A stretch of 64,000 nucleotides of DNA from Candidatus Thorarchaeota archaeon (GCA_963726195.1 CAVSBO010000005.1:128001-192000); one strand, 5' to 3'. Counted from the stretch's first letter, positions 42,873 to 59,216 are shown. Numbers and translations: made by a program. Notes: generated from the letters alone by a model not told the origin.

Positions 42873-44156
42873 CTAACCAAGTCTCTTCATCCTTGCAGAA
42901 CATTCAACTGCCCTCGCATTATCGCCGTTCTGTTTGAAGAGAGACGCCGCGATTTGCCATGTTCTCTTCGCTTCAGCGTTTCTTTTTAGCTTCTCAAGTA
43001 TCAATCCACGTTGGTAGAGATGGTTAGGGTTGTTCGGTTCAACAGAGAAGGCGGCATCAAAATCAGTCAATGCCTCTTCGAGTTTGCCCATAGAGACCTT
43101 CAGAAGACCCCGTTGATGCGCGAACACAGGGTTCGAGGCGTCCAGACCCAATGCTGTATCGAAGCAGTTCATGGCAGCAGCCGGCTCGCCCAACATCTGT
43201 AGCGCTTGGCCCCACTTGCTCCAAGCATCACCGCTATTGCCGTCCGCATTGGTCGCTTTTTCATAGGCGTCCGCCGCCACCACGTAGGACTTCATCATTC
43301 TATGAGCGTCGCCCTTACGAACCCACAGGCTAGCGTCATCGAGCTTGAGTTGGACGGCTCTGTCATAGTAGTAGAGCGCTCTGTCATACTCTTTGCGGGC
43401 ATAATAAGCATCGCCCAGATAGGCTAGGGCGTAGGGTTGCTCGCGGTCGACATCAGTTGCCTTCTGAAGTGTGTCTATTGCGTTTTCATTCTGTCCTGCT
43501 AAGAAGTATGTCTTCCCAAGTTCTGTCAGGGCAGAAATCGAAATGGGGTTCGCTTTCAGAGCACTATTGAACCATGCTATGGCTCCTGCTCGATCACCCT
43601 TGCTCGCGAGATATACTCCCTTCGCGACCATTGCTTTGTCAAAAGCCGGGTTCTGTTTCAATGCATGTTCGATGCTTTGGGCGGCCTTATCGTTGTCTCC
43701 GAGCTCCAGCTGAGCCATTGCCAGGTCCACCAGTGCGTTGACATTGTCAGGCTGGATTGCTAGCGCGCTTGATACGCGGCCGATAGCGTCCTTTGGTTTG
43801 CGATCCATGAGATACGCCGAACCCATGTTTATCAGTGCATCAACCTGCTTGCCGTCTATCGTCAGAGCGAGTTCGTACAGCCTGAGTGCGTTCGGGAGGT
43901 CACCTTCTTTGAAATGAAGGTTTGCTAGTCCGGTCAGCAAGCCAGGAAGCCTCGTATCGCTCTTGGCTGATTCCATAACTCCCTTCAGCTCTTCTTCAAG
44001 CTCCTCTAGGGCCCTTCGCTCCCTTGAATCGACGGTCGGCTTTTTCACCTTATCAGGGTCCACTAAGCCTTTCGGCCCTATTGCCTCCAGCTTCGTCTCA
44101 ATTGCAGAGAGGATTTCATCTGCCTGCACAGCCCTTTGCCCCTCGAGTATTCCCAT
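42873..44156 (-). CDS. Tetratricopeptide repeat protein (~10 TPRs)
   Basis: Recurrent 34-aa TPR pattern, e.g. ALAYLGDAYYARKEYDRALYYYDRAVQL. Confidence 0.9.
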   Translation of the reverse strand: MGILEGQRAVQADEILSAIETKLEAIGPKGLVDPDKVKKPTVDSRERRALEELEEELKGVMESAKSDTRLPGLLTGLANLHFKEGDLPNALRLYELALTIDGKQVDALINMGSAYLMDRKPKDAIGRVSSALAIQPDNVNALVDLAMAQLELGDNDKAAQSIEHALKQNPAFDKAMVAKGVYLASKGDRAGAIAWFNSALKANPISISALTELGKTYFLAGQNENAIDTLQKATDVDREQPYALAYLGDAYYARKEYDRALYYYDRAVQLKLDDASLWVRKGDAHRMMKSYVVAADAYEKATNADGNSGDAWSKWGQALQMLGEPAAAMNCFDTALGLDASNPVFAHQRGLLKVSMGKLEEALTDFDAAFSVEPNNPNHLYQRGLILEKLKRNAEAKRTWQIAASLFKQNGDNARAVECSARMKRLG

Positions 44157-44271
44157 CTATGTCTTATCAACTCTATGACATGTGCTATAGCACTACGAGG
44201 ACGTCGTACGATAACCTTTGGTTGTCGAGAGGAGGAACCCGGTGAGTTTGATGTTCTCGCCCGAGTTCTCT

Positions 44272-58012: not shown

Positions 58013-58034
58013 TTTCTCTTCACCTTCTCTTGTT

Positions 58035-59216
58035 TCAGTCCAAGGTTCCTTTCTTGGAGAAAACAAACGTGGCAAGAAGAATCGCGCCTATGGAGAATGC
58101 TAATAGCTTTGATATGGGCAATAACAGCTGTTGGAGTGCAAGGCCTTTGAAAGCAGTATCGATCAACAGTTTCATGCTCTGATTCATTGGCATGTACTGG
58201 TCCAGCACACCAACATCAACAAAGAATCCTGCAAGAATAAGAGTTGCAAACATAACAAACAGAAACATCTGATTAGCCTGCAACCTTGACGAAGCTACTG
58301 CAGAGATTAGAATGCCCGTTGCCGAACCGCTAAGGGAGATGAGGGTCATGACTATCACTAGGACTTCAAAGCCCGTGTTGAGGCTCAAGTTGAATGCAAT
58401 CACCCAGAGGGATACAAGCAGCAGGGACTGAAAGAACCCGACTATGACATATGCCGCGACCTTGGCGACCACAACCTCAAGCCTGTTTGTCGGCGTGAGC
58501 AGCATACGGCGGAGCGGCACGTCCCCCACTATTGACTGTGCCCCAGTCATTGCAATTCCCAAATAGGCAGAGAATACGACAATGAACCCACCGAATATAG
58601 TCGCGACATATCCACCCTTCGGAGTAAACTCGATGGTTATTGAAGGAAAGACTTCCGATCGAATCCACATCTTGGAGGCCCTGAACAGGATGGTTGCCGC
58701 TTGCACAGTGGTCATCACTGTGCTCTGCTTAATCATTTGAGTAGCATCCACGTGTAGCTCAACGTACGTAGGTTGGTTTATTGTCAAGTTGGCTTCGAAC
58801 CCATCGGGTATGACTACGTAGCCGTCTATCGTTTTGTTGTACAGACATTGGTAGGCTTCGTGAGTATTGTTATAGATTATGAGCTTGGTGACGAACAACC
58901 TAAGGTATGCGGTGAAATTGTCAGAAAGGTCCACGCCATTGTATGTTCTTGTGGTGTCAAAATCAATGACACCCAGATTGATATCGGATTTAAGCGTGGA
59001 GTTGCCACTACTACCGCTGCTTTGACCTTGCGTACCTCCTATCGTCAGAGTTCCTAGGTCACTAACGCCGATGACGTACCAGAGGACTCCGATAAGCACC
59101 GTGGGAAGAAGAAAGATCAGGAACAGGGCCATCCTATCCTTCACTATCAGGCGCAGTTCCTTCGCAATCATGTTTGTTATGCGGCGTCGCGGTTTGGTCA
59201 GAGTCTCTGCCATCAT
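58035..59216 (-). CDS. ABC-2 type permease with extracytoplasmic domain
   Basis: KELRLIVKD start, one TM, a soluble loop (VVIPDGF), then 5 TM including RMLLTP...VVAK. Confidence 0.88.
   Translation of the reverse strand: MMAETLTKPRRRITNMIAKELRLIVKDRMALFLIFLLPTVLIGVLWYVIGVSDLGTLTIGGTQGQSSGSSGNSTLKSDINLGVIDFDTTRTYNGVDLSDNFTAYLRLFVTKLIIYNNTHEAYQCLYNKTIDGYVVIPDGFEANLTINQPTYVELHVDATQMIKQSTVMTTVQAATILFRASKMWIRSEVFPSITIEFTPKGGYVATIFGGFIVVFSAYLGIAMTGAQSIVGDVPLRRMLLTPTNRLEVVVAKVAAYVIVGFFQSLLLVSLWVIAFNLSLNTGFEVLVIVMTLISLSGSATGILISAVASSRLQANQMFLFVMFATLILAGFFVDVGVLDQYMPMNQSMKLLIDTAFKGLALQQLLLPISKLLAFSIGAILLATFVFSKKGTLD

Follow-up and report, generated by a model that had tools for sequence, protein, structure and literature searches.

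[quoted passage not shown] A GIFT domain also occurs in human site-1 protease, which is laid out as a subtilase (S8) domain, a P-like domain and GIFT (PMC11231238). Adaptin-like Ig domains have already been reported in archaeal and Asgard proteins (PMC10936438), and little is understood of the cell surfaces of Asgard archaea, which may have no classical S-layer (PMC11284389).

We analysed a window of 64,000 nucleotides from a Candidatus Thorarchaeota archaeon (GCA_963726195.1 CAVSBO010000005.1:128001-192000), for which the names of homologues point to Thorarchaeota as the source genome. A sequence-only reading of the window had singled out six minus-strand genes separated by 22, 6, 1, -4 and 115 nt, and all six were found with these gaps in the ORF calls:

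58035..59216, minus strand: permease, 393 aa, ABC-2 (type V), six transmembrane (TM) segments, YhhJ/RbbA/ABCH-like
56333..58012, minus strand: ATPase1, 559 aa, TTG start, 22-nt gap after the permease gene
57308..57958, minus strand: tandem TrmB sugar-binding-type barrels of ATPase1, aa 19-235
51986..56326, minus strand: pseudo-subtilase (S8/GIFT), 1446 aa, single-pass, 6-nt gap given a TTG start
55085..55087, minus strand: Ala414 codon of the pseudo-subtilase, at the catalytic serine position
51004..51984, minus strand: ATPase2, 326 aa, 1-nt gap after the pseudo-subtilase gene
44272..51007, minus strand: giant protein, predicted type I membrane protein, ~2244 aa, 4-nt overlap with the ATPase2 gene
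48899 (approximate), no strand: extra base splitting the giant ORF, an assembly error
44275..44649, minus strand: predicted cytosolic seven-strand Ig sandwich of the giant, adaptin/COP-appendage (GAE)-like but hard to tell from other Ig folds
42873..44156, minus strand: TPR protein, 427 aa, predicted cytosolic, 115-nt gap after the giant gene

For the pseudo-subtilase, the gene caller (P0121) gives an alternative protein of 1434 aa, which fits an ATG 12 codons downstream. Pfam assigned ABC2_membrane_3 to the permease, ABC_tran to both ATPases together with a weak TrmB match in ATPase1, Peptidase_S8 and IFT52_GIFT to the pseudo-subtilase, an FG-GAP/BBS-type propeller and TSP3_bac repeats to the giant protein, and TPR to the last gene. 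As had also been read from the sequence, the two large proteins each have a hydrophobic N-terminus and a single C-terminal TM segment. Their signal peptides were called from hydropathy and sequence pattern rather than by a predictor, and their N-glycosylation sequons lie almost entirely on the predicted outside (28 outside versus 0 inside in one protein, 44 versus 1 in the other).

In the assembly, the giant gene appears as two ORFs of 731 and 1580 aa, caused by one extra base near position 48,899. Since this base is missing from the contigs of three out of three sequencing runs (X1, X2 and X3, from two studies) and the 23 giant orthologues are intact single ORFs of 2196–2276 aa, the extra base is an assembly error, and the contigs of the same three runs rule out a programmed frameshift or a pseudogene. 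The assembly is prone to indels, since two neighbouring genes are frameshifted as well. One is a PLP-dependent (PALP) gene (41559-42634, minus strand), frameshifted near 41,940, probably by an indel error too. The other is represented by two ORFs of 372 and 452 aa (59555-62003, plus strand) with a frameshift near 60,650 between them, a probable assembly error; relatives have one Pfam-less protein of ~800 aa, whose gene is divergent from the ABC/giant operon in most Thorarchaeia. The window also holds, at 35078-41554 on the plus strand, co-oriented genes for a GNAT fusion, two Pfam-less proteins, a D-Ala-D-Ala-ligase-like ATP-grasp protein and a GNAT protein.

The permease matches PF12698 with an E-value of 1e-20 (74 bits, cut-off 31.6) as well as the RbbA permease region of NF033858, and has a predicted extracellular domain after TM1. 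Its profile matched only insect ABCH structures (9ju6/8z01, E 5e-12), one of which was solved with ceramide. Both ATPases have intact Walker A and B, signature, Q-loop and H-loop motifs, the signature of ATPase2 being LSGGE, and Foldseek searches with an ATPase model gave NosF as the top match, with ABCA1, ABCA4 and ABCA7 also matched. ATPase1 combines two TrmB-C-type β-barrels with the ABC ATPase and a C-terminal regulatory domain, and its N-terminal extension is a tandem repeat (HHalign 98%). The model of the first barrel aligns with residues 248-342 of TrmB (3qph) at a Z-score of 15.4 over 92 residues with an rmsd of 1.5 Å; an adaptin platform, considered for this N-terminal domain, was rejected because the model matches TrmB. 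In TrmB itself, the second subdomain provides six of the seven sugar contacts (PMC4158304). The barrel loop in Thorarchaeia reads T-x-G-[GS]-x5-[EQD]-D. With the register set by motif spacing, the equivalents of TrmB Gly320 and Glu326 are each kept in only 15 of 24 ATPase1 proteins, for which reason sugar binding by the barrels is no more than possible; the Glu326-like sugar-contact position is variable and has been lost in families f7 (Jordarchaeales) and f24 (Ca. Harpocratesius, Lokiarchaeia). Stand-alone proteins of ~160 aa with one TrmB-type barrel also occur in family f21 and some Thorarchaeia (L100:10780-11268, L104:1901-2392).

A second, unlinked permease was present in all 20 Thorarchaeia genomes searched. 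The permease tree, which is unrooted and has long branches, shows separate Thorarchaeal and Lokiarchaeal duplications, and on this ground descent of the two Thorarchaeal permeases from the two Lokiarchaeal ones was rejected. In the genome studied here, the second permease lies on contig C3 (L116:9851-14093) together with a CAAX/Rce1 protease, a predicted active S8–P-like–GIFT protease without a C-terminal TM segment, and a roadblock gene. Such a protease stands beside the second permease in 14 of 16 loci and the CAAX protease in all 16. The locus is no operon, with the CAAX gene on the opposite strand and an unrelated HhH-GPD gene equally conserved.

The pseudo-subtilase is predicted to comprise, in order, a signal, a prodomain, the S8 domain, an insert of ~400 aa, a P-like sandwich, GIFT, an Ig domain, a TM segment and a 75-aa cytosolic helical hairpin. 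It had been read as a dead subtilase, and indeed Ser414 is replaced by Ala and the oxyanion Asn by Asp. No orthologue checked, across eight families, retains the GTS motif; the nucleophile position is mostly Ala and otherwise Thr, Ser, Val, Gly or Leu, and the oxyanion Asn has become Asp in all pseudoprotease orthologues. The catalytic Asp and His are retained in most families; in Lokiarchaeal proteins the His is lost too. Judged by these residues, proteolysis has been lost. Other Asgard S8–GIFT proteins keep GTS, as expected of an active S8 domain, and have a TM segment and usually a cytosolic zinc ribbon. HHalign against these active proteins revealed a common prodomain (92%), S8, post-S8 sandwich (97%) and GIFT (99%), and the P-like assignment derives from homology to the domain that follows S8 in them. 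The ~400-aa insert is unique to the dead family and matched only unnamed Asgard clusters. The GIFT domain matched IFT52 structures (E 3e-10); among 27 orthologues, IFT52_GIFT was found in 26, ABC_transp_aux in 24 and MBTPS1_4th in only five. The cytosolic hairpin is conserved in all families in an alignment of the tails; an assignment as ESCRT-I steadiness box was dropped, as Vps23/Vps28 were unmatched in Pfam or PDB. A complex prediction of two permease copies with the Ig–TM–tail portion of the pseudoprotease scored 0.00, the fold of the partner being uncertain in that prediction, and speaks neither for nor against contact. Because direct similarity to site-1 protease is weak (E 0.2), we claim that the pseudoprotease has an architecture in common with site-1 protease, and not that the two are orthologues. 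Elsewhere among Asgard families there are predicted active S8–GIFT–TM proteases of ~1260-1340 aa (L047:6854-10669, L049, L050 and L051), most with a cytosolic zinc ribbon, that match MBTPS1_4th and are candidates for a true site-1-protease relative. Among Asgard archaea, the site-1-protease layout is found with an active S8 domain as well as with a dead one.

Conservation of the gene order had been named beforehand as one test on which the proposed system could fall. The order permease–ATPase1–pseudoprotease–ATPase2–giant is constant in ~20 intact loci from 17 genera in two families, the sister family included, which is far beyond chance and leaves the proposal standing on this point. Each of the 24 family genomes searched has one full-length subtilase orthologue, and in 23 of 23 Thorarchaeia loci the TPR gene follows the giant gene at a distance of at most ~5 kb, directly adjacent in 18. 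In one exceptional genome (G242) the subtilase gene is split into pieces at two widely separated sites, and in another (G236) the giant is truncated and the TPR gene was not found.

Beyond these loci, we followed the N-terminal domain of ATPase1 and the C-terminal part of the subtilase across 300 genomes of the phylum, and their distributions over the families agree. In family f1, the former was present in 73 of 76 genomes and the latter in 72 of 76; the two co-occur in f2 (1/1), f7 (5/5), f12 (17/19), f19 (Ca. Freyarchaeum, 6/6), f24 (5/7) and f30 (1/1), counts that are drawn from related genomes and are not independent samples. Three f9 Lokiarchaeia that the first profile missed have a pseudoprotease with a whole ABC adjoining. 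Eight Asgard families have one or more permeases together with two intact ATPases and the dead subtilase, and in six of them these genes share a locus. Three gene orders keep the core adjacent: that of Thorarchaeia and f12, that of Freyarchaeia with a divergent subtilase gene, and that of Lokiarchaeia, which has two permeases. The exceptions are f7 and f30, in which the subtilase gene lies apart from the ABC genes. Homologue searches returned only Asgard names among the matches listed, and a contig scan on generic ATPase motifs gave unrelated ABC proteins. The giant was not found in the Freyarchaeia or Jordarchaeales genomes searched and so cannot be the reason for the core; its Ig tail was found as part of a giant in Thorarchaeia only, and a full-length TPR orthologue was not found in five non-Thorarchaeia genomes. 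Since the giant and TPR genes were found only in Thorarchaeia, this distribution points to the ABC transporter plus pseudoprotease as the conserved core, with the giant and TPR genes as a Thorarchaeia lineage addition. The proposed six-gene surface system therefore holds as a conserved unit, but its giant and TPR components are restricted to Thorarchaeia, and in Freyarchaeia, Jordarchaeales and Lokiarchaeia neither accompanies the core. In f12, the gene after ATPase2, in the same orientation, encodes a Ras-family GTPase, at the place of the giant gene in Thorarchaeia (L044:8048-8572, L085, L087, L102).

The giant protein itself is predicted to have an FG-GAP/BBS-like β-propeller, a TSP3-type Ca-binding stalk of ~1700 aa with a 23-aa period, a TM segment and a cytosolic Ig domain. 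Across 24 genomes the stalk measures 1706 ± 16 aa (~1% variation) in a colinear, almost gapless alignment, with identities of 54-72% in the stalk versus 42-44% in the propeller. Repeat number often varies in repeat adhesins, and because the length of this stalk is constant, it may be a structural ruler or folded rod with a diversifying tip. The repeats find their best matches, below the cut-offs, in the adhesion proteins CglD and MtsC/D. The tail was modelled as a seven-strand Ig fold (pLDDT 84) and matched the γ-COP appendage (Z 11.3), transglutaminase (11.1), the γ2-adaptin ear (10.9), PDIP38 (10.9) and BBS9 (9.4). The highest ranks go to COP and adaptin appendages, tied with transglutaminase and ApaG domains. 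Since these other Ig folds tie and CARDB/DUF11 match too, a link of the modelled tail to coats or the BBSome is a weak lead. The propeller and Ig domain of the giant flank the TM segment and the protein ends after the Ig domain, which departs from the plan of the BBSome core subunits (BBS2/7/9), where a single cytosolic chain contains propeller, coiled coil, GAE and platform; Pfam matches to BBS2 and BBS7 were set aside as generic, as an FG-GAP/FN3 protein that is unrelated gives them too, and so does a multi-propeller protein from Lokiarchaeia. Searches of the giant gave no VWA domain match and no platform domain, and ESCRT genes are absent nearby. Several other proteins have related parts. 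A conserved, predicted cytosolic Lokiarchaeia protein of ~790 aa (L105:7911-10181, L106-L114) is Cys-rich at its N-terminus and has winged-helix/PCI repeats together with an Ig domain related to the giant tail, and in two f24 genomes a small GIFT-like gene adjoins it. Three Thorarchaeal single-pass proteins (L115:4670-15999) have differing ectodomains and a cytosolic Ig domain related to the same tail. In a Lokiarchaeon (L252:3548-17868) and in f12 (L253:1912-12007), separate, adjacent genes, unlinked to ABC genes, encode a TSP3-repeat membrane protein and a multi-propeller one, two parts that the Thorarchaeal giant combines in a single chain.

By analogy with GldAFG, we tentatively favour a surface-assembly ABC machine with a pseudoprotease cap and with the giant as its Thorarchaeal client, a reading that we hold with slightly less than even confidence. 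The core would be a type V (ABC-2) transporter that has a membrane partner of its own, on the plan of GldA/GldF/GldG; two different ATPases, both intact, would power a permease dimer, and the dead subtilase–GIFT protein would form a single-pass extracellular cap. The cap may use its retained subtilase fold to bind, without cutting, surface glycoproteins exported by Sec, and ATP cycling at the permease could load or release it, with the result that clients mature, acquire lipid or assemble at the surface; the ABC might also act as a mechanotransducer. The TrmB-type barrels may adjust ATPase1 to a sugar or sugar-phosphate in the cytosol. The co-encoded giant would, in Thorarchaeia, be the main client or partner, whose fixed-length, Ca2+-stiffened stalk would hold the more variable adhesive propeller off the membrane and whose Ig tail may dock cytosolic partners, perhaps the TPR protein. 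That the adjacency of the core survives three gene orders supports the cap; the unlinked pseudoprotease genes of f7 and f30 count against it, as does the permease, whose closest solved relatives are lipid exporters.

Lipid export is the main rival and has to be taken seriously, given that these closest solved relatives are insect ABCH proteins, although we consider it rather unlikely. The core would be an ABCH/ABCA-like exporter of lipid or glycolipid, the pseudoprotease an extracellular acceptor or chaperone for a lipid or lipid-linked glycan, and the giant a co-regulated envelope cargo. The ABCH-only profile matches, ceramide included, and the ABCA1/4/7 and NosF matches of the ATPase model agree with it, and the independent permease duplications in Thorarchaeia and Lokiarchaeia would allow heterodimers as in ABCA. 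The barrels, being of sugar-binding type, bring to mind the carbohydrate-binding domain of Wzt exporters. GIFT domains, moreover, occur in oligosaccharyltransferase pathways (PMC11231238). Yet no glycosyltransferase or lipid-synthesis genes were seen beside the core in the loci read, which are partly annotated, and lipid export leaves unexplained both the near-zero-gap giant gene in Thorarchaeia and the whole subtilase fold. The conserved though dead S8 domain, its Asp and His retained in most families, and the conserved hairpin would also suit a sensing receptor, in which the pseudoprotease binds an external peptide or metabolite and the ABC relays this to the hairpin or to an active partner protease. 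CspC is a dead subtilase that senses bile acids. The candidate partner would be the Thorarchaeal S8–GIFT protease next to the second permease, where its recurrence and that of the CAAX protease are in favour; that locus not being an operon, the association may be ordinary synteny, and neither kinases nor response regulators nor transcription factors are conserved beside the core. We regard sensing as improbable.

The sequence-only reading had doubted that the ABC exports the two large proteins, and we agree. Co-location of an ABC with a giant Ca-repeat protein does recall the type I secretion of RTX adhesins, but the permease is of ABC-2/type V and not of HlyB type, no membrane-fusion protein is encoded in the locus, and, in place of signal-less cargo, both proteins have signal-like N-termini, TM anchors and almost exclusively outward sequons. 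The core also exists without the giant, and direct secretion is thus very hard to credit.

In the literature searched, which covered few subscription papers, we found no description of the locus, and the conserved surface system is apparently undescribed. As a single-copy module in nearly all Thorarchaeia that also occurs in Lokiarchaeia, Freyarchaeia and Jordarchaeales, it makes a good candidate for one of the core machines of the envelope, and because the core is present in Ca. Harpocratesius repetitus and Ca. Freyarchaeum deiterrae, it can be expressed and solved. A bolder reading, which we regard as a long shot, is a new kind of Asgard surface machine of ancient origin: an ABC motor would drive a site-1-protease-like pseudoenzyme, and this would assemble, or sense through, a ruler-length adhesin whose adaptin-ear-like cytosolic tail and TPR partner link adhesion to coat-like scaffolds. 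If true, modules that eukaryotes later used in IFT/BBSome, S1P and OST48, namely GIFT, the BBS-like propeller, GAE and TPR, would already work together in a prokaryote.

Compared with known type V transporters, the permease belongs to the same family as insect ABCH and bacterial YhhJ/RbbA, and the ATPase with a C-terminal regulatory domain resembles that of NosDFY, in which an extracellular partner is moved using ATP. To our knowledge, no member of this class (ABCH, YhhJ/RbbA, NosDFY) has a pseudoprotease partner or TrmB-type barrels. Unlike TrmB, the barrels of ATPase1 are duplicated, fused to an ABC ATPase, and without the first subdomain or DNA-binding part. The giant shares TSP3-type Ca repeats and an adhesive tip with CglD and MtsC/D, the thrombospondin-repeat adhesins of Myxococcus, but differs from these and from archaeal adaptin-appendage proteins as a predicted type I membrane protein with a propeller tip, an invariant stalk of ~1700 aa and a cytosolic Ig domain. 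The pseudoprotease follows site-1 protease (MBTPS1/SKI-1) in having signal, prodomain, S8, P-like domain, GIFT, TM and cytosolic tail in the same order (PMC11231238), and departs from it in being catalytically dead, in the ~400-aa insert before the P-like domain, in the extra Ig domain before the TM segment and in its tie to an ABC. The parallel with GldAFG of Flavobacterium, already drawn from the sequence, is upheld by synteny and by IFT52_GIFT in nearly all orthologues: both have an ABC-2 permease, a DrrA-like ATPase and a co-encoded, membrane-anchored GIFT partner, both point to surface machinery, and the substrate is unknown even for GldAFG. The Thorarchaeal system differs in its two different ATPases, which score 97 and 132 bits against the GldA equivalog cut-off of 402.6 and one of which has TrmB barrels, in its YhhJ/ABCH-type permease ectodomain and in its 1446-aa dead-subtilase partner, and would represent a second, independent case of pairing ABC-2 with GIFT.
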